Virus record (IMG/VR): IMGVR_UViG_3300045988_107221 | Location: 1-44,774 of that record | DNA length: 44,774 bases | Strand: one strand, 5' to 3' | Source: a virus | Shown here: positions 3,021 to 44,767 of the stretch, one piece after another | Layout: each line of letters opens with the position of its first letter | Position numbering within the stretch: the first letter of the stretch is position 1 | The notes under the pieces: model-generated | Seen by the model: only the letters and a program-made list of their open reading frames with translations | Databases searched by the model: none | Told to the model about the DNA's origin: nothing | Position numbers and translations under genes: made by a program

Positions 3021-3416
3021 TCACAGAAATAATTCGTATATCACATCATCACTAAATAAGATAGGTTTGATCTTATTGATTAGTCTAGTTTTATTACGGC
3101 TTATCGTCGTCACTGTAGTATCATAATATTCTGCAATTTCTTCCCTTGTCTTTCTTTCAAAATAATACATTGGTATTGTATCATAATAAATATCGTCTTT
3201 GATCATTTCTAAAGCTGAATCTATTCGCTTTACTAATTTGACAGTATAAGGCTGATCGGACGTTTTGAATGCCTCATAATTCCGTAAAAGTTCTTCAGTC
3301 TTTTCGTATGCAGTCCTTTTTCCGTCTTTCATTAAACCTGCCATTTTTAACTTCAATACTGTAGCATTTACTGTCTCATTGATAATCTGTTTAATTTCAT
3401 GGGTTTCATAGTTCAT
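3021..3416 (-). CDS. ArpU-like / sigma-70 region-4-like late transcription regulator
   Basis: Start moved to the ATG at 3416 (RBS AAGGAAGGGG), giving 131 aa. The C-terminal HTH (REEIAEYYDTTVTTISRNKTRLINKI) resembles sigma region 4. It is monocistronic between two non-coding regions and sits immediately upstream of the late operon. Confidence 0.55.
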   Translation of the reverse strand: MNYETHEIKQIINETVNATVLKLKMAGLMKDGKRTAYEKTEELLRNYEAFKTSDQPYTVKLVKRIDSALEMIKDDIYYDTIPMYYFERKTREEIAEYYDTTVTTISRNKTRLINKIKPILFSDDVIYELFL

Positions 3417-3455: not shown

Positions 3456-3902
3456 TTCAAGATAAACTACTATATATTATATATTTACAAAACATCAAAA
3501 ATTTTTAATGATTTTACTTTATATATAAATAAATATAAAGTATCTTGACTTCTTGACTTTTTCAAATTGTCTATACAATTTATATGTGTCAACCGTCATA
3601 CTTTCGGGAGTTTTTTTGCTAAGTCAAGATGAATTGCAACATCTTGACTTATCTTGAATTTATCTTGACTTTTTTCACCATAATCAACCACTCCTAACTA
3701 CTTTTTGTAAAATAACAGTTGAGCGTGCTTACTCAACTGTTATTTTGTTTCATTTTTTATCTGTACTTATCTTGACTTATCTTGACTAGCAAATGTCCAC
3801 GAGCCGAAAGACATTTTCATGCGTGCCTATGAAAAAGTGTCTTTCCCTCGAAGACAAGTTCAAGATAAAGTCAAGATGAATTATTAAAATTCAAGATGAA
3901 TT
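3456..3902. repeat. array 1 of ATCTTGAC(T)/(A)GTCAAGAT boxes (12 copies, both orientations)
   Basis: Boxes start at 3456, 3542, 3551, 3623, 3641, 3651, 3662, 3769, 3779, 3859, 3870 and 3890, many spaced 10-11 bp apart. The array fills the 488-bp gap between dut and the late-regulator gene. Confidence 0.9.
3710..3757 (+). terminator. strong hairpin with a plus-strand T-tract (orphan plus-oriented terminator)
   Basis: Perfect 14-bp stem AAATAACAGTTGAG / CTCAACTGTTATTT with an 8-nt loop, followed on the plus strand by TGTTTCATTTTTT. The minus-strand side lacks a T-tract. Confidence 0.55.
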
Positions 3903-3904
3903 TA

Positions 3905-4324
3905 TTAGATGCCAGTGCTACCAAATGCACCGCTACCCCTCTCAGGACCACTTTCGGTGACAAAATCGGCAATAACTACCGGCACAATTACAAGCTGCCC
4001 GATGCGATCACCGTTGGAAATTTTAAAAGGTTTATCACTGCAATTAGTAACTATCGCATGAATCTCTCCACGGTAACCACTATCAATAGGAGGTAACTCA
4101 CACGTGATACCTTTACTACTTAATCCGCTCCTAGGAAATACATAGGCAGCATATCCATCAGGCAGACACAATCCTAATCCTAAAGGAATTTTTATTGTCG
4201 TATGAGGTGCTAATTTAATAGAACTACAATTGTGGAAACATACGTGTACGTCAGCGCCCGCATCATTATCGTGCGCTCTAAATGGCAATTTCTCATATCC
4301 AAAATCAATCACTTGAACCTTCAT
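3905..4324 (-). CDS. dut: trimeric dUTPase
   Basis: 139 aa with all five dUTPase motifs: AGADV, PRSGL, IDSGYRGE, RIGQLV and RGSGAFGSTG. Confidence 0.9.
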   Translation of the reverse strand: MKVQVIDFGYEKLPFRAHDNDAGADVHVCFHNCSSIKLAPHTTIKIPLGLGLCLPDGYAAYVFPRSGLSSKGITCELPPIDSGYRGEIHAIVTNCSDKPFKISNGDRIGQLVIVPVVIADFVTESGPERGSGAFGSTGI

Positions 4325-5139
4325 TATTTTTCTCCTTTATAAATATTGAATCGGTCTAATAGCTCTAATAATAATTCTTTGACATCCGCATTATGTCTAA
4401 TACCATAATCCACAAGTTCGGCGACAAATATTGCATGTTCGTGGAAATTCTCACGATTAAATGTGATCGGTTTGCTTATTGGGTTGGTTAATATTTCTAC
4501 GATTTTGTCTTCGTCTTTCTCATACATGTGAAGGCTTGTGACAAAATGCGTATAGATCCCATATCCCACATGTAATTCACTGGCGATATATTTCTGTAAC
4601 TCTGTGAAGAATGTAACATCATATGGGAAACCAAACCAAATATCATTACTCCTCATGATTCCCGTACAATGCAACTTTCTATCTCTGATAAGGAACTGTA
4701 GTGCAATCGTACAAGGTTCATCTTTGGTTTCAATCACCTCATCATTTGGCGTATTCAGATTAATGACCGCTCTCCTGCTATTTGGATCCTTTCTAAGTAA
4801 ATCAATCACTGTTTGGATTTGGTCAAAATCAAATGCACTTTTCATCAAATAACCGTATGCGCTATTAGAAGTTTTGCCGTCATCTGAAATTTTCTTCCAC
4901 ATACTACCAAAGGCTCCTATGAAATCAACTGAATTTCTACCAGTAAAGTACCATAATAGTTCACCAAATAAATATGTAGGAGAAATATTTCTAATACTTA
5001 CGATGTTGTTATTAATATCCGTCAGTGTAAACTGCATGTTATTAAGTTCTCTCGTGTTCCCTACCTTTGGGGCCTTTAATAATTTTGCACACACAGAAAG
5101 GTAAATATCATCAATATGACCGCTTATCATTTCTCGCAT
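4324..5139 (-). CDS. thymidylate-synthase-family enzyme, predicted dCMP hydroxymethylase/methylase type
   Basis: 271 aa. Catalytic-Cys region DEPCTIALQF aligns to PCHAFFQF of E. coli ThyA. MRSNDIWFGFPYDVTFF aligns to QRSCDVFLGLPFNIASY. The pyrimidine-specifying Asn is therefore Asp here. Confidence 0.7.
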   Translation of the reverse strand: MREMISGHIDDIYLSVCAKLLKAPKVGNTRELNNMQFTLTDINNNIVSIRNISPTYLFGELLWYFTGRNSVDFIGAFGSMWKKISDDGKTSNSAYGYLMKSAFDFDQIQTVIDLLRKDPNSRRAVINLNTPNDEVIETKDEPCTIALQFLIRDRKLHCTGIMRSNDIWFGFPYDVTFFTELQKYIASELHVGYGIYTHFVTSLHMYEKDEDKIVEILTNPISKPITFNRENFHEHAIFVAELVDYGIRHNADVKELLLELLDRFNIYKGEK

Positions 5140-5140
5140 C

Positions 5141-5899
5141 TTAATCCTCCTTCACTTTTAAAACCCACAGACAATTCCTCGCGTGTTCTGGTTTAATAAG
5201 AGGTGCCATGATTACAGAAAGCATATTCGTGTCATAATATTTTTTAAGCTCATCAAACATCGCCCGGCGCCAATCTCCTGCGATCTCTTCTCTATAATCC
5301 TTTATTGAAGCAAAGGTTCCATATTTAGCTTCAATGTCAAAATATTCGGATAATTTATCCTGCAGCTCGAAATGATCCCACTCCCCAACTTCTTTATTAC
5401 CTTCAGGGCCAAGCATGTGGTTTTTAGCTGCTCCTACATTTGGATCATAATTTGGAGTACTAAGGTAAACCCTTGTATTCTCATCACAATGGAATGCGAT
5501 ATTGTCGAGAAAGGCATCTGCATTCTCATGGCCGATGTGTTCCATGACTTCAAAACAAGTGATAATATCAAATGTCTGACCGAGATCAATTTCACTGCAA
5601 AGGTCCATCTGTCTGAATTCAGCAAAATCGAGCTTTGCAAATTTCTCATTGTTTTCATCGATGGTCTGTTTTCTGATGTCTAATCCTAAATACTGTTCTG
5701 GTCTATATCTGTTACGGTAAAATAACTCAAGCATTTCGCCTGTGCCGCATCCAAAATCAAGGATCGTTTGACCAATCTTTGCAACCTTTAAAATGTGTGT
5801 CCATCTGAGATAATGAGCAAACTGATCTCTATGATAAATATGTCTCTCAAATTCCTGCTGAGGTGTTAACTGTGTCTTGTTATAAATCTGCTTAGCCAT
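5141..5899 (-). CDS. class I SAM-dependent methyltransferase (substrate unknown)
   Basis: 252 aa. Motif I is ILDFGCGTGEM, with a later acidic motif and FEVMEHIG typical of the Methyltransf_11/23 fold. No DNA-MTase DPPY or PC-ENV motifs seen. Confidence 0.7.
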   Translation of the reverse strand: MAKQIYNKTQLTPQQEFERHIYHRDQFAHYLRWTHILKVAKIGQTILDFGCGTGEMLELFYRNRYRPEQYLGLDIRKQTIDENNEKFAKLDFAEFRQMDLCSEIDLGQTFDIITCFEVMEHIGHENADAFLDNIAFHCDENTRVYLSTPNYDPNVGAAKNHMLGPEGNKEVGEWDHFELQDKLSEYFDIEAKYGTFASIKDYREEIAGDWRRAMFDELKKYYDTNMLSVIMAPLIKPEHARNCLWVLKVKED

Positions 5900-6378
5900 T
5901 ATGCTATCTCCTTTTCTTCAACTAAATTAAAAATTTCCTGTAATGTCATTTTGGATGTATCAATGATTGGAATACTAAACTGCTTCGCATAAAATTTAAA
6001 ACGCTCATTGATATGGTTTAAGTTTTCATAAATTCGTTTATCTTCATCGCCTCGTTTATTTAATCTCTCATAAAGAGTGGTCATATCACATGTAAGCACA
6101 AATACCTTTACATTTTCTTTTTTCGCATAGTGTAAAATAATTCTCACATCCTCTGTTCCGAGTTGAGGCTTTCTATCAAAAATCTCAGGATAGATCAATT
6201 CACCAATTGTATGTCTATCCCATACGACGTTTTCTTTTCTTAAGGTCTGACGATAGAAGTTATAATCTGCTGCATCATACTGAGTACAATGACAAATGTC
6301 CAGCCCATATTTTTCTGCCAGAATCTTCGCCAATGTGGTTTTACCGGCTCCATCCACGCCTTCTAATATAACTTTCAT
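5899..6378 (-). CDS. thymidylate-kinase-like dNMP kinase
   Basis: 159 aa. The P-loop ILEGVDGAGKTT matches the Tmk signature (EGxDGxGKST). WDRHTIGE sits at the DRY-motif position. Confidence 0.7.
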   Translation of the reverse strand: MKVILEGVDGAGKTTLAKILAEKYGLDICHCTQYDAADYNFYRQTLRKENVVWDRHTIGELIYPEIFDRKPQLGTEDVRIILHYAKKENVKVFVLTCDMTTLYERLNKRGDEDKRIYENLNHINERFKFYAKQFSIPIIDTSKMTLQEIFNLVEEKEIA

Positions 6379-6379
6379 A

Positions 6380-8293
6380 TTAATCTCCTTTCTTTACAAA
6401 GATCCGATATTTTTTACCTTTGATGGTTTTATCGACTATTTTAAAATCAAAATGCTTTTTTACCTGCTTGCTAAATTCAATGTTACTCATTGGATTAAAA
6501 CTGTTTGCAATACAAAATTCGTTATACTTCTTATAAACATTTCTTGTTGGTTCATTTTCAATCTTTACATCTTCTTTGAAGAATAACAAAATAGGATTAT
6601 TATTTTCTGTGTATTCTTGCAATGCTTTATCCACTTTTTCGGATGATGTGAATTTCCTATTCTTCAATACTCGTTTAAGACCTTGTATCCCTAAATTAAT
6701 CAAATACTGCATTGGTTCTTCCTGTATCAGTTTATACTTGATATAAGGATCAAAATCCGGGTCATTGGGCGAGAATCTCGCATCAAATGGAATGATAACT
6801 AATCGGCTTATTACCGCTCCTGACTTATCTTTGATTCGTGGAATATCATTTGCTGAAAATAGCAGCTTCGCATAATTGGAGAAGTCGAACGGGTCTTTTC
6901 CTTTTCGTTCAACATTGATGGGGTTACCCGAAGCTAATTTCTTAAATACAGAAGGATTTGGAATAAATTCGCTACCAATATCATCACCAATATTTGCAAG
7001 CTTTCCGAATAATTCTGCCGTCTTAAATCTATCCCCAAGTTCCTTTAAATCGAGTGATGCGATATTCTTTCTTCCAAGCAAATTCTCAATCATTGAAAGA
7101 AAGGTTGATTTTCCATTCTCTTTTTCACCCGTCAATATGAAACATTTTCGCAGCTCATTCCTTCTATAAAAGCAATAACCGATACATTCTTCCAAGAGCA
7201 TTCTAATACTCTCATCTTGGCACGCTAACTTATTAAGGGTCTTATCCGTTAACTCTGAATATGCATCTGGGTCATAATCATATTCAATCTTATTTGTAAT
7301 TACGATGTCAGGAGTAAACGGCTCTAATGTATCAGTTTCAATGTTATAAATACCATTGTTAAATGCGATATAATTCGCGTGACTCATTGGTATATCCTTA
7401 TCTATCAAAATATCAAGATAACTTAATACTTCAGTTCGTTTGGTCTTATTCAAATTGCTGATATGTTTTATCATTTGAGCTTCTATCTCTCTAACCCCAT
7501 CCACATAAATGCCATCTTTATAGATATGTAATTGACCATTGATCTTGATAATGTGATTTACATTTTTTAAATAGGTGGCAAACTTATCGAATAAGAAGGA
7601 ATTCTTCTTGAAGAAAATAGGTTTTTTAAAAGCATCATCTCTGGATAATGTTTCTAGTTCTTCTTCATCAAGTGGATTCTTTAAAACATATTTATTAATA
7701 ATTCTGAGAACTTCTCTTGATTCTTTTACACTGAAATCATTGGCTTGTAATGTAAGGATGTAATTAAACAATGCTTGATTTCTGCCATCGCCGGCTTCCA
7801 TTTCGAAAAATTTCATCTTTGTATAGACGGGCAGCAACCATTTTGGCAGCGCTTCATATTCTTCATCGGGAAAAATATCGTATAAAATGAATCTTTCTTC
7901 GTTATTATATTTCAATACCGAATATGAATTTTTGCAGCCAACCTTTATATCTGCCTGTATTCCACAAGCAAGTGTCTTATTTATTCCACATTTATCAAGA
8001 ATGATTTCACCCATTGAGTCGATATTTTTAAATAAGAAATGCTTACCTCTAGTCGTTTCATATACTCGACAATTACATTGGAGATCTTCCACGATGTCCA
8101 TCAATGTTTCTGATTGCTCATAATCATCTACATCAATCAACACTACATTATCCGCAATGATGCCGGCGTACTCAGGTAAATTCTTTACCTGTTCGTATGT
8201 TCTTAATTCTGCTGGTGATTTATTTTTAAAAGGCATTAAGCATTTCTTATCTTTTGTTGGTACATATCCTTTAAATAATGACACCTTTTTCAC
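6380..8293 (-). CDS. bifunctional primase-polymerase / D5-P4 family SF3 helicase
   Basis: 637 aa. N-terminal Prim-Pol motifs LIDVDD and TTRGKHFLF. C-terminal Walker A ILTGEKENGKST and Walker B-like NIGDDIG, as in P4-alpha/D5-type primase-helicases. Confidence 0.85.
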   Translation of the reverse strand: MKKVSLFKGYVPTKDKKCLMPFKNKSPAELRTYEQVKNLPEYAGIIADNVVLIDVDDYEQSETLMDIVEDLQCNCRVYETTRGKHFLFKNIDSMGEIILDKCGINKTLACGIQADIKVGCKNSYSVLKYNNEERFILYDIFPDEEYEALPKWLLPVYTKMKFFEMEAGDGRNQALFNYILTLQANDFSVKESREVLRIINKYVLKNPLDEEELETLSRDDAFKKPIFFKKNSFLFDKFATYLKNVNHIIKINGQLHIYKDGIYVDGVREIEAQMIKHISNLNKTKRTEVLSYLDILIDKDIPMSHANYIAFNNGIYNIETDTLEPFTPDIVITNKIEYDYDPDAYSELTDKTLNKLACQDESIRMLLEECIGYCFYRRNELRKCFILTGEKENGKSTFLSMIENLLGRKNIASLDLKELGDRFKTAELFGKLANIGDDIGSEFIPNPSVFKKLASGNPINVERKGKDPFDFSNYAKLLFSANDIPRIKDKSGAVISRLVIIPFDARFSPNDPDFDPYIKYKLIQEEPMQYLINLGIQGLKRVLKNRKFTSSEKVDKALQEYTENNNPILLFFKEDVKIENEPTRNVYKKYNEFCIANSFNPMSNIEFSKQVKKHFDFKIVDKTIKGKKYRIFVKKGD

Positions 8294-18238: not shown

Positions 18239-18296
18239 TTGCCGCAATGGGAATCGAACCCATGACATCATTGCTCTACCACTGAGCTATGCGACA
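18239..18296 (-). ncRNA. tRNA-like element lacking the anticodon arm
   Basis: The minus strand folds as: acceptor 5' strand TGTCGCA, then TA, the D arm GCTC-AGTGGTA-GAGC, a 9-nt linker AATGATGTC, the T arm ATGGG-TTCGATT-CCCAT, acceptor 3' strand TGCGGCA, and discriminator A. The acceptor stem has 7 bp (one G-U). G18/G19, T54-T55-C56 and A58 are conserved. No anticodon stem-loop is possible. Confidence 0.7.
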
Positions 18297-18896: not shown

Positions 18897-19244
18897 ATGG
18901 AGGCAGGAGAAGTTATCAAAAAATTGCGTAATGAAAAGAAATTTACGCAATCAGAATTGGGAATTATGCTAGGAGTGAATACATCGTCAATTCAAAAATA
19001 TGAAAGCGGAGCTACCAAAAATCTGAAATTAGAAACAATCAGGGAGTTATGTCATATATTTGATGTACCTCCTCTAGTCTTTGTTTTTCCAGAAATACTA
19101 GATGAAGGTTTCGATGCATATCATGAAAGAATGTTCAAGGACCATATGAAGGCATCACTAAATGTAAATGAAGAAGGTATAAAGAAGATATTTGACTATA
19201 TAAGCGACATTCAATCTATGCCGAAGTATCAAAAGTCAAGATGA
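18897..19244 (+). CDS. XRE-family repressor (CI-like, no S24 peptidase domain)
   Basis: ATG at 18897 with RBS GGGGAGG, 115 aa. HTH FTQSELGIMLGVNTSSIQKYESG. Divergent from the early operon and upstream of int. Confidence 0.75.
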   Translation: MEAGEVIKKLRNEKKFTQSELGIMLGVNTSSIQKYESGATKNLKLETIRELCHIFDVPPLVFVFPEILDEGFDAYHERMFKDHMKASLNVNEEGIKKIFDYISDIQSMPKYQKSR

Positions 19245-19447
19245 ATTCAAGATAGTTCAAGATAAGGAAATTCATCTTGAATTGGCTTAGGGCTTACGGT
19301 TGACACATATTTGAACTGAAAAGTCAAGAAGTCAAGTTAATTTCTACTTTTTATATATAAGCTAAAATCATTAAAAATTTTTGATGTTTGTAGAAAATAA
19401 TATATAAGTAAATATATATCTTGAACTTGACTTCTTGACTTTTGACA
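19235..19447. repeat. array 2 of (A)GTCAAGAT/ATCTTGAC(T) boxes (about 9 copies)
   Basis: Boxes start at 19235, 19246, 19256, 19274, 19323, 19331, 19418, 19425 and 19433. 19297..19400 is the inverted counterpart of 3484..3597. The array ends in TTGACTTCTTGACTTTTGACA, 20 nt before the int start. Confidence 0.9.
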
Positions 19448-19466: not shown

Positions 19467-20471
19467 TTGCGGAGAGCAAATGGAGAAGGTTCAATTTTTA
19501 AGCTAAGCGGTAAACGTCGTAAACCTTACGCCGTAAGAATTACAGTTGGTTATACGAATGAAGGAAAACAGCTATACAAATATGTTGGTTATTATTCCAC
19601 CAAAACAGAAGCCAAAAATGCAATGAGAGAATATCTTGTCAACCCATTCAATTTAGACCATAAGAGCACCAAGCTCAAAGATGTATACGATAGGTGGTCA
19701 GACCAGAGTCAATTGGCCCAAACGACTATGCAGAGTTATGGTTCCGCTTTCAACCAAGCAAAGCAGCTTCACAACATGAGCATGAGAGACATCAAGGCTG
19801 CACACTTGGAAGCTGCTATGGATCAAATGAAACCTCATATGCGCAGCGTGTTTAAAAATGCTATGGGGAAAGTATATACATATGCTATCAAGCACGAGGT
19901 TGTTGATAAGGACCTCATGAGTCTGATCTCAGTGAAAACTACAGTGGAGACAAAAGAGAAAACACCATTCACCTTGGCTGAGATCAACAAACTGAAAACA
20001 TTTAAGCATCCATTAAATGACACCGTTTTCATCCTTTTGTATACGGGATTGCGGATCAATGAATTGCTTGATATTAAATGTGAAAATGTTCACTTGGATG
20101 AACGGTATATGATTGGAGGTAAGAAAACGAAGGCGGGCCAGAATCGAATCATTCCAATTCATGATGCAATTTATCCTTTAATAAAATCAAGATGTGAACA
20201 AGAAAATAAGTATCTGATAACCAAAGATAACAAGAAGATCAATTATGCTACATACAGAATTAGCTATTGGAATAAAATGAACTCTGCACTCGGGTTTAAA
20301 CATACACCGCACGACACACGTCACACATTTACGACATTTGCAGATAGATGCGACGTGCATAAAGTAGCATTGAAGAGAATTTTAGGTCATACGTTGAGCG
20401 ATATGACTGATCATTATACCCATAAAGATCTCGATGAATTACTGGCTGAGATCAATAAAATTGTATATTAA
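19467..20471 (+). CDS. int: tyrosine recombinase / phage integrase
   Basis: 334 aa. TTG start after AAAGGGAGAG. Catalytic pattern TGLRINEL (Arg), HDTRHTF (His-x-x-Arg) and LGHTLSDMTDHYTH (His...Tyr). Confidence 0.9.
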   Translation: MRRANGEGSIFKLSGKRRKPYAVRITVGYTNEGKQLYKYVGYYSTKTEAKNAMREYLVNPFNLDHKSTKLKDVYDRWSDQSQLAQTTMQSYGSAFNQAKQLHNMSMRDIKAAHLEAAMDQMKPHMRSVFKNAMGKVYTYAIKHEVVDKDLMSLISVKTTVETKEKTPFTLAEINKLKTFKHPLNDTVFILLYTGLRINELLDIKCENVHLDERYMIGGKKTKAGQNRIIPIHDAIYPLIKSRCEQENKYLITKDNKKINYATYRISYWNKMNSALGFKHTPHDTRHTFTTFADRCDVHKVALKRILGHTLSDMTDHYTHKDLDELLAEINKIVY

Positions 20472-40053: not shown

Positions 40054-41775
40054 TCACCCTCCAATCATGGCTTTAAATTCAGTGCGGTATCGTCTGTACA
40101 TTTCATAAAGAATAACTAAACAAACTGCACCATCAATTCGTTTAGGCATTTCTTGCTTTATCAAAAGACATTTTCCATAATCATCAACTTTAATGCCTGC
40201 GTTTTTGAAACACCATTTATCCATTACATTTTCATTGTAATTTACAAGCCGATGTTTCAAATCTGCTTCGCAAAGCTTAATTGCATTTGTGAGCGTTTGA
40301 GCATTCTGCAAAATCATAATCAAGTCAGAATCTTCATCACCAGTTCTTTGCCAACCATAGAAATCCATTCGGGTGATCCAATCTTTTGCGAATTTTTGGT
40401 CATATCCACATTTCCAAAGTCTGACATTATAATCAAGATATAGTTTATAAAACCAATCTGCTACAACGGCGAGATCAATATCATTTCCTTCGGTAATTGT
40501 GAGTAATCCATCTTTTGCCCAATCTTTATATCTTGCTCCTGCATTCCAATCATCAGAATCTTCTAATTTTGATTCAGGAATAAAATAATGAGTATGGATA
40601 TATTTGACTGGGTCATTCGGTTTCATTAACAGAATTTTCGCACAAGTCAAATCAGTCGTTTCAGATAAATCAACTGCTCCCAGACATTTGGCATTTCTAA
40701 ATTCTTCAAGATCATATACCGCTTGATAATCATAATCTTCGAGATTAAGCCAGCTTTCAACTCCATTCTGCTTAATATTAAAATCCTTTGATAAAACAAA
40801 AATTCTATCAGCCTTTGAAGCCTTCGCAATATCAACTTGCTCTTCGAGATATTCCCATTTCTTCACTATGCCAAGAGTAGGATTAGACTTTTCCCATAGC
40901 CTATTTTTACGGTTACCCATCCAAACTTCTTGTTCTGAATCTTGGGTATATAACCAAGGTAGAAGTCTCTCGGCCGCAAGGCCGTCGTCTTCTTTATTGA
41001 TAACTCTTCTCGCTTTCTTTAATTCGTCGTCAAGATAACCGTCAACCACGAATCCTTCGGTTGTGATATTGATAAATTTTGGATTATCCTTTAGTGATTG
41101 CGACTGCTCAATTGATTTACCGATGATATTCTCTTTCATCTCGTGAGTTTCATCTACGATTGCAAAGTCAATATTTCGACCTTCTTTGTTCTTTGTTCGG
41201 TCAGACATTTTAAAAACTTTCGTGTTTGTCACCTTGTTTAATATGAAAGACTGGTTTCGCTTTGTGTCCATATCATTTGGATCATAGAGCCGTCGCATCA
41301 TATCTACCGCATCATAAACCAAGCTACATTGAGCATCGTCGTTTGATGAGCAGCAAATATCAGCACCTTCATTTCCAACAATAAATTCACTGTTAGCTAA
41401 TGCTGAGGATGTTTCTGATTTTGTATTTTTACGGGCTATCAGAAGAATTGTTTTTTTAAACCGATCGAATCCAGTTTCTATCATTTTAAAAGAATAGAAT
41501 GTTTCAATCCACGCTTTTTGCCAAAGCATCAAAACCATAGGTTTATTATAAAAAGGTGATTTTGTTAACCTGATACAATTCTCCATGAAATCCATTCTCA
41601 ATCTTGCAGCATCAGTATTATAAAAATACTTGTCATTATAAAAATCCTCGGCCAAGTTATCAAGCTCCTGCCATAACTCTTGGCCTATGACAATCTCACC
41701 TGCTTCGGCCTTCGCTCGGTATTCTAGTAAGTAGGAGTTGTCAGGTGTCCAAATGGTTTTATCCCGTATCAACAT
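40054..41775 (-). CDS. terL: terminase large subunit
   Basis: 573 aa. Walker A-like LLIARKNTKSET, Walker B DFAIVDETHEM, and a C-terminal nuclease region. Overlaps terS by 17 nt. Confidence 0.9.
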   Translation of the reverse strand: MLIRDKTIWTPDNSYLLEYRAKAEAGEIVIGQELWQELDNLAEDFYNDKYFYNTDAARLRMDFMENCIRLTKSPFYNKPMVLMLWQKAWIETFYSFKMIETGFDRFKKTILLIARKNTKSETSSALANSEFIVGNEGADICCSSNDDAQCSLVYDAVDMMRRLYDPNDMDTKRNQSFILNKVTNTKVFKMSDRTKNKEGRNIDFAIVDETHEMKENIIGKSIEQSQSLKDNPKFINITTEGFVVDGYLDDELKKARRVINKEDDGLAAERLLPWLYTQDSEQEVWMGNRKNRLWEKSNPTLGIVKKWEYLEEQVDIAKASKADRIFVLSKDFNIKQNGVESWLNLEDYDYQAVYDLEEFRNAKCLGAVDLSETTDLTCAKILLMKPNDPVKYIHTHYFIPESKLEDSDDWNAGARYKDWAKDGLLTITEGNDIDLAVVADWFYKLYLDYNVRLWKCGYDQKFAKDWITRMDFYGWQRTGDEDSDLIMILQNAQTLTNAIKLCEADLKHRLVNYNENVMDKWCFKNAGIKVDDYGKCLLIKQEMPKRIDGAVCLVILYEMYRRYRTEFKAMIGG

Positions 41776-42073
41776 GACCTCTCACCCACTTTCTTAACGG
41801 GCTTTCTTCGTCCCCTTCGTCGTGGCCGGTTGCCCGTGTCAGAACTTTGATAATGTTCGTGTACTGTTGCAAAAGCTCCTTGTACTGCTTCTGTGCTGGC
41901 GTGCTTTTCTGCTGCATAGGGTTCTTAGGGTTGACCTTGATAAATGGCAATTTCTTTAAATCCTCTAACCGATTTTCCAGAAAAATAACTTCGTCAATGA
42001 GTGGCATTAAGATGATTTTATCCTCGTCTGAATCACAACAATATTCAATTAATTCTCGTCGTCTGTCTTTCAT
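41759..42073 (-). CDS. terminase small subunit (P27-like)
   Basis: Start set to the ATG at 42073 (RBS AAGGA), 1 nt after the upstream stop, giving 104 aa. The longer 168-aa ORF would overlap the fibre gene. Assigned by size, position and the KVNPKNPMQQKSTPAQKQYKEL pattern. Confidence 0.65.
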   Translation of the reverse strand: MKDRRRELIEYCCDSDEDKIILMPLIDEVIFLENRLEDLKKLPFIKVNPKNPMQQKSTPAQKQYKELLQQYTNIIKVLTRATGHDEGDEESPLRKWVRGHVDTG

Positions 42074-42074
42074 G

Positions 42075-42668
42075 TCACGCCGTCCTTTTCCACATATAAC
42101 AAGTAATGTACGGCTGTAAGTTATTGTGTGCATTACCGCCTCCGGCACTCTCCACCGTCGCACTTGCCGCATGGCTATGCGTTGCATTAATTTTAAATCC
42201 GTCTTTGTATTTTGTTGTTTTATCTGTATTACTCGGATAAAAAGCAGTATCGTCACCTGATGCACTACATATGCCGCTTACCGTGTTCCCCGGACCCCAA
42301 CTTGCACTCTGCCCTGCAAAATTATGCACTGTACCTGTAAGTGATTTTTCTGTAACTTTAACTGTTGTAGAATGTTTGTGTGACGGCATTTCATTAATTG
42401 ATAATGTGTGTGTTTTCTCACCGCCGGTCTTTTCAACCGTTGAAAAATCACCGTCCGATGTGTTTACACTCACGGGTACCCGACCAGCTCCCCACGTTAC
42501 CCATGTGCCACCGAAAAGCGTTCCGGGGTTTGTGTTATTTACACTCATATAAATACTACCTACGGGGTATACTTTATCGAGCGTAACCCCGCCAGATGAA
42601 TGAGCGTCAATGTAATTTTTTATTTTCGCCCACAATCTCGTCAAACCGTCGTTATCCAGATAACCCAT
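42075..42668 (-). CDS. tail-collar-domain fibre protein
   Basis: 197 aa. YPVGSIYMS...GTWVTWGAGR...GGEKTHTLSINEMPSHKH...GGNAHNNLQPY is the phage Tail_Collar pattern. The N-terminal MGYLDNDGLTRLWAKIK adaptor motif is shared with the gene upstream. Confidence 0.75.
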   Translation of the reverse strand: MGYLDNDGLTRLWAKIKNYIDAHSSGGVTLDKVYPVGSIYMSVNNTNPGTLFGGTWVTWGAGRVPVSVNTSDGDFSTVEKTGGEKTHTLSINEMPSHKHSTTVKVTEKSLTGTVHNFAGQSASWGPGNTVSGICSASGDDTAFYPSNTDKTTKYKDGFKINATHSHAASATVESAGGGNAHNNLQPYITCYMWKRTA

Positions 42669-42682
42669 AATCCCGCCTCACT

Positions 42683-43858
42683 TTATACACAAATAGCGTC
42701 AATCTGCGCGTTTGTGATTGCCGTAATAGTAAAGATTTCGCCCAATGCGTCCCAAGCGGTACCGTTCCATGCAACATTCATGCCTGCGCCACCATATTTG
42801 CTGGCTGCTTCGATGTTGTAAACATCACCAACTCTCTGTCCGGTTGTTGGTAATTTGTCTGAAGAAGCTACTGAACCACAATATTTATACATATTAGTGA
42901 TTTCGGATTTCTTAGCATATGTACTCGATAAAGTAGCATTTGTCGGTAACGCGTCAAGTTTACCTTTATCTGTGGCACTCATAAGACCGGCCACGCTACT
43001 AGTTGCCCCGCTAAAGGTAAATCCGCATAAATCTACGGCCGCCTCACCTTCATCCATCGTAATCCAAAAGCCGCGTTTATCCGCAGAGGGGTTGTAATCC
43101 CTTATTTGCAAGCTACCCCAATAGCCACTCGCAAATAATACCATCGTCTCTTGTCCTGCCGCTGGTGCCGGTACAAGTCCATGTGTACCCATCATGTCAC
43201 CACTTGCGGCGGCTTTAAAATCACTGTAAGTTGTATCCTTATCTGCGCCCCAAACGGCCGTTCCGTCTGCGCTCCAACGTAAGATTTGACCGGAAGAACC
43301 GCCCGCCGGGATGTGTTTGTTACCACTTGTCGTAGGGTGTGTATAGTTGTTCGCGTTCGTGGCAATACCGTCTAATTTCTTTTTATCTGCCGCGGTCATA
43401 AGACCGTGTGCGGACTGAGTAGCGTCATTATAGGTTGTATTATTGTCAGGTGGCACGCTCCACGTGCCATCAGAACGCAAATATCTATTTGCGGCCCCTG
43501 CCGCTGGTGCCGGTGCCAGACCATGAGTACCCGCCGCCGTTGTCGTTGCACCTTTCATGTCAGCATATGTGGTGTTAGCCGGTGTTCCCCATGTTCCATC
43601 TGCTTTTAAATATTTACCCTCATTTCCTTTTGTTGGGGCAGGTACTAAGCCGCTCCCGCCATCGGCCGACGCTGTTGCACCTTTAAAATTACTGTAAGTG
43701 GTATTTGTGTCCTGCGTGTTAATCGTTCCAGTTGTTCCATCACCTTTCGTGAATGTGATGGTTCTTCCGTTTACTGATAAATTAGTGATACCTTTATTGA
43801 AAAGTGCTTTGATTTTATTCCACAAGTAGGTAACACCATTACTGTCTAAATAAGCCAT
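42683..43858 (-). CDS. tail fibre protein with G(T/S)HGL(V/A)PAP...YL(K/R).DGTW and GLM(S/T)A.DK.KLD repeats
   Basis: ATG at 43858 (RBS GAGAGGTGGAA), 391 aa. Three GLxPAP repeats and two GLMxAxDKxKLD repeats. N-terminus MAYLDSNGVTYLWNKIK. Confidence 0.75.
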   Translation of the reverse strand: MAYLDSNGVTYLWNKIKALFNKGITNLSVNGRTITFTKGDGTTGTINTQDTNTTYSNFKGATASADGGSGLVPAPTKGNEGKYLKADGTWGTPANTTYADMKGATTTAAGTHGLAPAPAAGAANRYLRSDGTWSVPPDNNTTYNDATQSAHGLMTAADKKKLDGIATNANNYTHPTTSGNKHIPAGGSSGQILRWSADGTAVWGADKDTTYSDFKAAASGDMMGTHGLVPAPAAGQETMVLFASGYWGSLQIRDYNPSADKRGFWITMDEGEAAVDLCGFTFSGATSSVAGLMSATDKGKLDALPTNATLSSTYAKKSEITNMYKYCGSVASSDKLPTTGQRVGDVYNIEAASKYGGAGMNVAWNGTAWDALGEIFTITAITNAQIDAICV

Positions 43859-43871
43859 ATTTCCACCTCTC

Positions 43872-44369
43872 TCATTTGCATATCTCATCAAGTTCTAAAT
43901 TTGTAATTGATTCGGTCGCGTGTTCTTCGGTCCACAGTGTGCCGTCTGACTTTATACCGACGTTTGCGCCGCCTTTAACGACTCCTAAACTTACGACGGT
44001 GGCAATCGGTACGCCCGTTTTATTCTCTGCAATCCCTTGAATCAATTCGTAATTAAAATTACTTTTTTGTGATAGAAATAAGTTTCCGTCAACTTTCGCA
44101 ATCTTCGTTATCTGGAAATAGTCCCCGGCGTGATTGTCGTCCACAATCCGAAATTGCAGGCTCCCGGTTCCTGTGTAGTAGATGGAGCCAATCTCACATG
44201 TAAAAGGATTTCCCTTTATCATTATTTGCTCGCCCGCAATCTCAAGCACTGGATTTAATGAAGTATCGGCTCGTATCTCAATAAAAACACGATTTTCCCC
44301 GTTATCAATGATACTCACCAAATCACATATGCAATTTTTCGTTGCGTCAATAACAATCGTATTTTTCAT
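43872..44369 (-). CDS. hypothetical fibre-module protein
   Basis: 165 aa. The C-terminal ITNLELDEICK resembles the C-terminus (ITNAQIDAICV) of the next gene. Confidence 0.5.
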   Translation of the reverse strand: MKNTIVIDATKNCICDLVSIIDNGENRVFIEIRADTSLNPVLEIAGEQIMIKGNPFTCEIGSIYYTGTGSLQFRIVDDNHAGDYFQITKIAKVDGNLFLSQKSNFNYELIQGIAENKTGVPIATVVSLGVVKGGANVGIKSDGTLWTEEHATESITNLELDEICK

Positions 44370-44389
44370 GAGATTTTAACACCTTCTTT

Positions 44390-44767
44390 TTATGATACCG
44401 TTATAGTCGGGATACCGTCCCTTTTTAGTAAAATCAATCTACATTTAACACTCAAATAATCCGTGTGCGTTGTTTTGAAATATACAGATAATTTATTCGT
44501 ATTGCGTATAAATACGTTTAGTATATCTGTATTTGCCATTGTGTAATAATTTTCGTTATAGGTTGCATCGTCACTACGAACAAACATTTTAGAAATAAGA
44601 GAAGTGTTCACAAAAGTCCACCCGTCGGGTAACTGAATTGACTTAGTTGTGCCTGATTGAATAGACGGTATTTCAACAATCAATAATTTTTTTTCTATCT
44701 CACCTTTTGGCACTACTTCCCTTTTACATTTATTTGTTCCGCAAAATCCATATACTTTTTCGCTCAT
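44390..44767 (-). CDS. hypothetical protein (spans the circular junction region)
   Basis: 125 aa. Its RBS lies beyond the window end, seen in the duplicated copy at about 90..97. Confidence 0.55.
   Translation of the reverse strand: MSEKVYGFCGTNKCKREVVPKGEIEKKLLIVEIPSIQSGTTKSIQLPDGWTFVNTSLISKMFVRSDDATYNENYYTMANTDILNVFIRNTNKLSVYFKTTHTDYLSVKCRLILLKRDGIPTITVS

Follow-up and report, generated by a model that had tools for sequence, protein, structure and literature searches.

Inverted iteron arrays in a temperate phage genome are probably SaPI-type origins read by the phage's own primase-helicase

The viral record IMGVR_UViG_3300045988_107221 from IMG/VR, analysed over its full length of 44,774 nt (hereafter the window), carries two arrays of short, directional boxes of the form ATCTTGA(C/A): array 1 upstream of a late-regulator gene and array 2 upstream of a tyrosine integrase gene (int). 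These boxes are probably iterons of a replication origin like those of staphylococcal pathogenicity islands (SaPIs). Nearly all genes of the window lie on the − strand. In order of transcription, the replication module comprises a cro-like gene, a helicase, Sak4, a single-stranded DNA-binding protein (SSB), a DNA polymerase and a D5-type primase-helicase (8293 to 6380); it is followed by genes for a thymidine monophosphate (TMP) kinase, a methyltransferase, a ThyA-like protein and a dUTPase (4324 to 3905), and then by array 1. On the 3′ side of array 1 lie the late regulator (3416 to 3021), two intrinsic terminators, a holin, an endolysin and terS, the small terminase subunit gene. On the + strand, the gene of an HTH_3 repressor ends at 19244, and array 2 and then int come after it. 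The window acts as a circularly permuted complete genome, and in the relative L016 the open reading frame (ORF) at 44390–44767 comes after terS2. A first-pass annotation of the same DNA had placed array 1 upstream of the late regulator; this position is correct and is kept across relatives. The features at issue are:

6380–8293, − strand: D5-type primase-helicase of superfamily 3 (SF3), predicted initiator
nt 6383–6601, about residues 565–637 of the primase-helicase: predicted C-terminal winged helix, putative iteron reader
3021–3416, − strand: late regulator with a sigma region-4-like helix-turn-helix (HTH), phrog_36, adjoining array 1 on its downstream side; rejected as box binder
19467–20471, + strand: tyrosine integrase, directly downstream of array 2; arm domain without box covariation
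3456–3897: array 1 (12 candidate iterons, AT-rich core, two hairpins), bounded by the stop codon of the dUTPase gene (3905) and the start codon of the late regulator (3416)
3456–3463, − strand: box ATCTTGAA, regulator-proximal flank of AT core 1
3464–3541: AT-rich core 1, putative DNA-unwinding element, with a AAATATATAATATATAG motif and, on the − strand, a promoter-like TTGATG-N18-TATAGT
3542–3557, + strand: boxes ATCTTGAC and TTCTTGAC at 8-bp spacing, distal flank of AT core 1, orientation opposite to 3456–3463
3623–3669: inverted box pair 3623–3630 (−) / 3641–3648 (+), then + strand boxes 3651–3658 and 3662–3669
3709–3746, + strand: hairpin 1, a perfect 15-bp stem (3709–3723 / 3732–3746) with an 8-nt loop, CGTGCTTA
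3769–3786, + strand: two tandem copies of ATCTTGAC at 10-bp spacing
3800–3850: hairpin 2, imperfect, loop GCGTGCCT
3859–3897, − strand: three boxes (3859–3866, 3870–3877, 3890–3897)
19235–19281: distal cluster of array 2, with 19235, 19246 and 19256 (−) and 19274 (+) including an inverted pair; kept in L008–L014
19323–19338, − strand: boxes TTCTTGAC and AACTTGAC at 8-bp spacing, left flank of AT core 2
19339–19417: AT-rich core 2, homologous to the reverse complement of 3464–3541
19418–19439, + strand: three boxes, right flank of AT core 2, opposite to 19323–19338, 28 nt before the int start

The exact heptamer ATCTTGA occurs 27 times in the window, compared to 10.6 ± 3.1 (maximum 18) in 100 dinucleotide-preserving shuffles, and 16 of these 27 copies fall inside the arrays (11 in 3457–3897 and five in 19236–19424). 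The shuffled control proposed with the first-pass annotation thus came out in favor of a clustered, non-random motif. Together with one-mismatch boxes (TTCTTGAC at 3550, and those at 19323, 19331, 19424 and 19432), array 1 (3456–3897) holds 12 boxes and array 2 (19235–19439) holds nine. The repeated box is ATCTTGAC, the consensus of the oriented list reads about TT(C/T)ATCTTGA(C/A)TT, and the extended form AATTCATCTTGA, described before, was seen at five boxes. As originally counted, array 1 has seven boxes reading one way (+ strand: 3542, 3550, 3641, 3651, 3662, 3769, 3779) and five reading the complement (− strand: 3457, 3624, 3860, 3871, 3891). It begins with the leftward box 3457, the AT core, the rightward boxes 3542 and 3550, the inverted pair 3624/3641 and the rightward boxes 3651 and 3662; hairpin 1, the rightward boxes 3769 and 3779, hairpin 2 and the leftward boxes 3860, 3871 and 3891 follow. 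The second array upstream of int, likewise reported earlier, was found and is homologous to array 1; it runs from three leftward and one rightward box (19236–19281) over two leftward boxes (19323–19338) and the core to three rightward boxes (19418–19439). Array 1 had been called helically phased. Spacings of 10–11 bp do hold for distal sub-clusters (3641/3651/3662, 3769/3779, 3860/3871 and 19236/19247/19257), whereas the core-adjoining boxes are 8 bp (3542/3550 and 19324/19332) or 6–8 bp (19418/19424/19432) apart, so that phasing is true of the distal sub-clusters only.

Two further observations concern the sequence around the boxes. The last residues (KSR) and stop codon of the repressor are encoded by the first box of array 2 (19230–19244), and the L016 repressor reads on through several boxes (…KSRSSQDKSR). 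A conserved element, ACGGTTGACA(C/T)AT, lies ~15–25 bp outside the core-flanking boxes in both arrays (3586–3597, − strand; 19298–19309, + strand) and in several relatives, and may represent a degenerate iteron or a −35-like hexamer.

The AT-rich cores contain 10% (core 1) and 13% (core 2) GC, compared to 37.8% for the window, and rank first and second, respectively, for lowest duplex stability over all 78-bp segments of the 44.8-kb sequence. Oppositely oriented boxes flank both of them: one box plus one degenerate copy versus two in array 1, and two versus three in array 2. The degenerate copy, TTGATGACTT, follows the box at 3456–3463, where relatives carry TTCTTGACTT. In both arrays the module of core and flanking boxes is oriented toward the downstream gene (late regulator or int), being inverted between the arrays. 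The motif AAAAAATATATA(A/G) was present in the AT-rich center of 40 out of 47 such modules, across all box types (AT cores of L027–L076, L063, L064, L085 and L086); the window has 11 copies, four of which lie inside the two cores (3469–3485 and 19398–19418). It may be the core of an unwinding element or a −10-like element.

Both hairpins of the first-pass annotation, one with a + strand T-tract and one long and imperfect, were found, with a stem of 15 rather than 14 bp for hairpin 1. A + strand (antisense) T-tract follows hairpin 1 (dG −13.5, z −7.6 vs. shuffles), which was flagged by the terminator scan on the antisense strand only; it looks terminator-like only for + strand (antisense) transcripts. 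Relatives carry hairpins of different sequence at this position. Hairpin 2 (dG −12.7, z −5.6) has a homologous counterpart in L002.

Could the arrays mainly serve transcriptional control, with the AT module as a promoter and the boxes as operators clamping it at about −60 to −80 upstream and +1 to +25 downstream? The binder might then even be the primase-helicase, similar to SV40 T antigen at its own origin, tying expression of the late regulator and int to early-protein level or to replication. Several features would suit such a role: the inverted module aims at the downstream gene in both arrays, the hexamers TTGATG-N17/18-TATAGT/TATAAG are kept in close relatives, shortly ahead of a box, the extended −10-like AAAAAATATATA(A/G) recurs in the modules as described above, and the array directly precedes the late-regulator start codon in all relatives. 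However, a hexamer scan of the window revealed no promoter enrichment (10 found vs. 8.3 expected in shuffles), and AAAAAATATATA(A/G) lies anywhere between 57 and 160 nt from the start codon. Moreover, no dedicated transcription factor tracks the boxes (repressor, regulator and terS alike), and the protein that does co-vary with them is a homologue of a replication initiator whose family uses this site design as origin. We therefore consider a mainly transcriptional function unlikely, while noting that it is compatible with an origin function rather than exclusive of it.

The predicted initiator is the D5-type primase-helicase. Pfam models D5_N (3e-11), DUF5906 (6e-23) and Pox_D5 match this protein, and its residues 254–615 align by phmmer to PriRep5 of SaPI5 (PDB 7OLA; E = 2.4e-42), the C-terminal domain included. 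An AlphaFold2 (AF2) model of residues 501–637, with a predicted local distance difference test (pLDDT) score of 84, displays the helix-helix-hairpin (H-H-strand-strand) topology of a winged helix. SaPI Reps are self-loading SF3 helicases whose C-terminal winged helix reads iterons and sets specificity, and a SaPI origin consists of 6–12 short iterons downstream of rep, whose AT-rich center is flanked by two or more iterons per side, those of one side opposed to those of the other (PMC9371898). The 12 boxes of array 1 and nine of array 2 fall within this range of iteron numbers; both AT-rich centers have at least two opposed boxes per side, with array 1 counting one degenerate copy and the relatives having two. 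The primase-helicase belongs to the SF3 initiators, as judged from its Pfam matches and PriRep5 homology, and that iterons and initiator are cognate is indicated through covariation only, as detailed below.

Searching INPHARED phages with both arrays by blastn gave no match. In IMG/VR, a regulator search retrieved relatives L001–L007, all of which have boxes upstream of the regulator, including L007 with a regulator of 62% identity, and an integrase search retrieved L008–L015, with the exact array 2 layout retained in L008–L014. Conservation of the boxes in related phages, which had been put forward as a check, was hence observed for array 1 (L001–L007) and array 2 (L008–L014). Across these relatives the boxes remain constant amid drifting intervening sequence, as is characteristic of protein-binding sites.

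A primase search with 10-kb flanks yielded 61 loci, in which other box types were found by de novo k-mer clustering. In total, ~45 related metagenomic phages share array design and position and have other boxes, namely GAACAGAT, CCTTCAAC(AT), CACAGAT, TAACAGA, GGAACAG, CTTGTAACC (L063), CGGGACA (L064) and ATCTTRTAC. In their arrays, a distal cluster with an inverted pair comes first, and opposed boxes on both sides of an AT-rich core come next, shortly ahead of the late regulator. The same design occurs in two cultured phages: Paenibacillus phage Wanderer (GTAACAGAT, directly after the primase stop) and Bacillus phage BMBtp15 (GGTTACAG, downstream of the primase, ~0.1–0.3 kb past its stop). 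Boxes of sister phages lack TTGAC, and the earlier remark that the box contains this −35 core thus describes an incidental resemblance.

A scan of genome contigs with an 18-nt double-iteron pattern returned mostly chance matches, and real arrays in one gut Clostridia metagenome-assembled genome (MAG) only. This MAG, Clostridia bacterium HGM12858 (CAAFXS010000094.1 and CAAFXS010000049.1; L087/L088 and L105), is the sole one in GTDB to carry these arrays, pointing to a Clostridia host from the human gut. Its contigs break at the arrays, and in one of them, of 14.8 kb, the dUTPase side is connected with the helicase side via a single array, representing either a repeat-induced misassembly or a recombination product.

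The diversity of box types allowed proteins to be compared for covariation with them, in a set of 40 loci carrying the ‘MTDKELSQRAKEYF...’ regulator. In all 40, the box type matches the C-terminal wing of the primase: DKWISRLGKCRVF accompanies box CCTTCAAC (16 loci), (D/G)A(K/R)YI(K/R)G(K/R)KTRIF accompanies GAACAGAT (15 loci), DSRRIKGRACRVF accompanies CACAGAT (six loci), MVKRFRGGNCRVF accompanies TAACAGA (two loci) and VPKWIRNRKTRVF accompanies GGAACAG (one locus). The type-defining residues sit in the ~15-residue hairpin wing of the predicted winged helix. When the 40 C-terminal residues of the primase were clustered at 80%, all clusters were pure for box type (C16, G14, A6, T2, G1, G1), as opposed to mixed clusters for the primase body (at 95%), the regulator (85%) and terS (85%). 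Individual pairs illustrate this. For instance, the primase bodies of L039 and L030 are 98% identical, their C-termini 66%, and their boxes differ; L030 and L044 differ in their boxes despite 99% identical regulators; and L053 and L039 have the same boxes with regulators of only 62% identity.

A strict-association test was run along whole 22-kb loci, in which a segment passes if every same-type locus is closer to the reference than every other-type locus. With L030 and L044 as references, only the primase 3′ end and the array passed; with L053 (G type) as reference no segment passed, the G type having two wing subtypes of ~77% identity. Between the primase 3′ end and the next type-specific stretch lie ~0.9 kb of type-independent sequence, and a further island of mean divergence corresponds to the ThyX gene (metabolic).

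These comparisons also bear on whether the boxes are sites for the region-4-like late regulator itself (autoregulation), as the first-pass annotation had offered as one of its options, or packaging sites for the small terminase. The TTGAC within the box, the weak Sigma70_r4 match of the regulator, and the location of the sister-clade array <1 kb from terS are what speaks for such sites. Yet regulators of 95–99% identity adjoin three box types (GAACAGAT, CCTTCAAC and CACAGAT), regulator and terS clusters are mixed as stated, boxes are absent between the regulator gene and the late genes, and array 2 is far from any packaging gene. The regulator option is contradicted by these data, and either variant appears extremely improbable.

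The window's own clade contributes one contrast of this kind. L015 and L026 are one 44.7-kb contig (IMGVR_UViG_3300013947_000009) that keeps the whole architecture and carries ATCTT(A/G)TAC boxes (ATCTTATAC in L015) in both arrays. Its primase wing is changed (KSKSINGKKYRIF vs. DKTIKGKKYRIF), and it is the only wing-changed phage in this clade. The Int arm domain of L015 has two unique residues (S14G and N51E) compared to the ATCTTGA phages, and the first 60 residues of the L026 repressor, comprising its HTH, are 100% identical to those of L019, L020 and L023. With Int arm and repressor HTH nearly unchanged next to changed boxes, neither qualifies as the box reader, and the earlier suggestion of operator arrays that co-regulate the late activator and int finds no support with the repressor or Int as binder. 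That both arrays of L026 changed box type together indicates the same binder for both and, more specifically, that array 2 has been under selection to bind the same protein as array 1.

The integrase arm domain, the repressor, the late regulator and terS were thus all dropped as box binders, none of them co-varying with the boxes. The host CtsR operator, (A/G)GTCAAA-NAN-(A/G)GTCAAA, is a look-alike of AGTCAAG-ATA-AGTCAAG; it was discarded because in sister phages the box sequence varies in step with a phage protein.

In L026 (1–21807), the whole early segment, spanning repressor to dUTPase, is flipped with respect to int and the late genes, such that the dUTPase gene reads into int; the array modules are perfect inverted copies of each other over at least 85 bp, and the regulator-side junction is seen only up to the contig end. 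The repressor-int arrangement is kept in seven of seven informative metagenome loci and in seven of eight viral loci, and no further dUTPase-int (inverted) arrangement was found in the seven metagenome loci. This scarcity argues for a rare evolutionary rearrangement at the repeats rather than a programmed switch. It also speaks to the idea that the boxes are arm-type sites of the integrase, with array 2 as attP or recombination site and the inverted arrays as the sites at which Int would invert the 16-kb early region. Int does have a weak Arm-DNA-bind_4 match, tandem triplets at 10–11 bp in both orientations round a core resemble arm sites, and the inversion in L015/L026 lies between the arrays at the repeat just described. 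We nevertheless regard this idea as very unlikely: flipping is rare, the N-terminal domain of the L015 Int differs at only the two residues mentioned despite ATCTTATAC boxes, no contig separates array 2 from repressor and int, and sister-clade loci have a single array with no int nearby.

Taken together, we consider it likely that the boxes are iterons of a SaPI-type origin, that is, one served by a self-loading SF3 helicase, and that they are read by the phage's own primase-helicase. Of the options raised in the first-pass annotation, ori-type iterons for this protein, in a pair comparable to ori and crr of phage P4, is the one favored by PriRep5 homology, SaPI-like architecture and wing covariation. 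In the proposed mechanism, the C-terminal winged helix of the primase-helicase would bind the ATCTTGA(C/A) boxes, and opposed boxes beside the ~78-bp, 10–13% GC core would position helicase assemblies that melt the core and start bidirectional replication. The distal clusters, with their 10–11 bp spacing and one inverted pair, may provide extra cooperative binding sites. Array 1, which comes after the replication module and immediately precedes the late regulator, would occupy the ancestral origin position of the family. Array 2, which was found in the window's clade only, may be a lineage-specific inverted copy bound by the same protein, acting as a second origin or as a helper similar to P4 crr.

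Several points weigh against this interpretation. The best Foldseek matches of the modeled domain in the PDB, Orc1/Cdc6 and RFX winged helices on DNA, were not significant (E ≥ 0.07). Most of the covariation comes from a sister clade whose primase is ~60% identical, the own clade giving the single contrast of L026. The covariation has one exception, L050, a 6.7-kb contig in which the C-type wing DKWISRLGKCRVF lies beside a GAACAGAT array (5880–6170); in place of the missing regulator, unrelated reverse-strand DNA follows the array, and the contig appears to be a recombinant or a chimera. Neither hairpin of array 1 has a described counterpart in SaPI origins, and GC skew in the window follows the coding strand and is uninformative on the origin. 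The AT modules, moreover, share their orientation toward the downstream gene and have promoter-like hexamers with a box at about +1, which, along with AAAAAATATATA(A/G), leaves room for a coupled transcriptional role. Finally, the putative origin does not lie directly downstream of the initiator ORF in the window, as array 1 is located 2.5 kb past the primase stop with four genes between. The relatives L063 and L064 and Paenibacillus phage Wanderer do have it directly after the primase stop, and the window hence looks like a derived state, in which four nucleotide-metabolism genes appear to have come to lie between initiator gene and origin. This block (3905–6378, − strand: TMP kinase, S-adenosylmethionine (SAM) methyltransferase, ThyA-like protein and dUTPase) is variable; the sister clade has ThyX and other genes at its position, and it is absent from L063, L064 and Wanderer.

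Known replication systems offer several comparisons. In phage P4, the alpha primase-helicase has a C-terminal winged-helix origin-binding domain and acts with two sites, ori and crr, which it binds and which are both needed in cis, the latter located 4.5 kb from ori and made of direct 120-bp repeats. Here, too, one primase-helicase would be paired with two separated clusters of the same short repeat, 15.7 kb apart, which changed box type together in L026 (sister-clade phages have one array). Unlike in P4, both copies have a complete AT-rich core flanked by inverted iterons and bracket the whole early region as inverted repeats. Among eukaryotic viruses, the SF3 helicases large T antigen (LTag) of SV40 and E1 of papillomavirus load as two hexamers at inverted short repeats by an AT-rich tract, in origins that overlap promoters. 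The arrangement of inverted short repeats next to an AT-rich tract is shared with the present arrays, but these viral proteins use an origin-binding domain (OBD) fold instead of a C-terminal winged helix and operate in a eukaryotic host.

The closest likeness is to the SaPI origins (SaPI1, SaPIbov1 and SaPI5; PMC9371898), with which the window has in common an SF3 D5-type initiator with a C-terminal winged-helix specificity module (predicted here), 6–12 short iterons, an AT-rich center with at least two opposed iterons per side, an origin downstream of the initiator gene, and cognate initiator and iteron specificities (by covariation in our case). It differs from them in being a 44.8-kb temperate tailed phage rather than a satellite, in its longer iterons (8–10 vs. 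5–6 bp), in the four nucleotide-metabolism genes between initiator gene and origin, in carrying the module twice, inverted and 15.7 kb apart, and in the two long hairpins inside array 1 and the abutting of the origin on the late-regulator start codon. A tailed-phage counterpart is Enterococcus phage Abitsa (Efquatrovirus), for which a PriRep5-like helicase and a predicted origin of seven 10-bp iterons round an AT-rich region have been reported, by analogy to SaPI5 (PMC13517437, 2026). Abitsa is lytic and has a single array, in contrast to the phage studied here, and the origin passage contains neither a covariation analysis nor a link to a late regulator or int (PMC13517437). On the strength of that passage, the SaPI-type origin design is already known in tailed phages.

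A bolder scenario, which we regard as rather unlikely, sees the arrays as duplicated origins with embedded promoters that form a replication-coupled developmental switch, a flippable early module and a natural wing/iteron recognition code. If so, the promoter of array 1 would be directed at the late regulator and that of array 2 at int, and either occupancy by the primase-helicase or the firing of the origins would set when late genes are activated and integrase is expressed. The inverted origins bracketing the 16-kb early module would let it flip, as happened once in L026, and the wing-hairpin/iteron pairs would amount to a code for reprogramming origin specificity.

Some observations from elsewhere in the window are recorded here. 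Two strong tandem intrinsic terminators (3007–2980 and 2954–2926, − strand) lie right after the late regulator and before holin, endolysin and terS, a layout like the lambda order Q – tR′ – lysis – terminase that hints at antitermination or a separate late promoter. The sole Rfam match of the window, to tRNA at 18239–18296 (− strand), comprises only 58 nt at 48 bits over the full model span, and ARAGORN found no tRNA in the window. In the regions 197–1421 and 40054–44767, two adjoining ORFs match terS families, one of them also HNH endonuclease; five ORFs, one of them tail-fibre-like, separate these terS-like ORFs from terL, an odd order for a packaging module.

This uncultured temperate phage, whose hosts are probably gut Clostridia, can now be assigned a likely origin and a predicted reader protein. 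More generally, the combination of a SaPI-type self-loading helicase with iterons round an AT-rich core appears to be widespread in tailed phages of Firmicutes, usually with the origin between the replication module and the late regulator. The ~45 natural variants, in which only a ~15-residue wing hairpin and the iteron sequence change, and do so jointly, constitute a data set for decoding or engineering origin specificity. While SaPI/PriRep-type origins are already known in kind, it is uncommon for the origin to be doubled, with inverted copies on both sides of the early genes, and this may bear on replication mode, modular recombination and the timing of late-gene expression.

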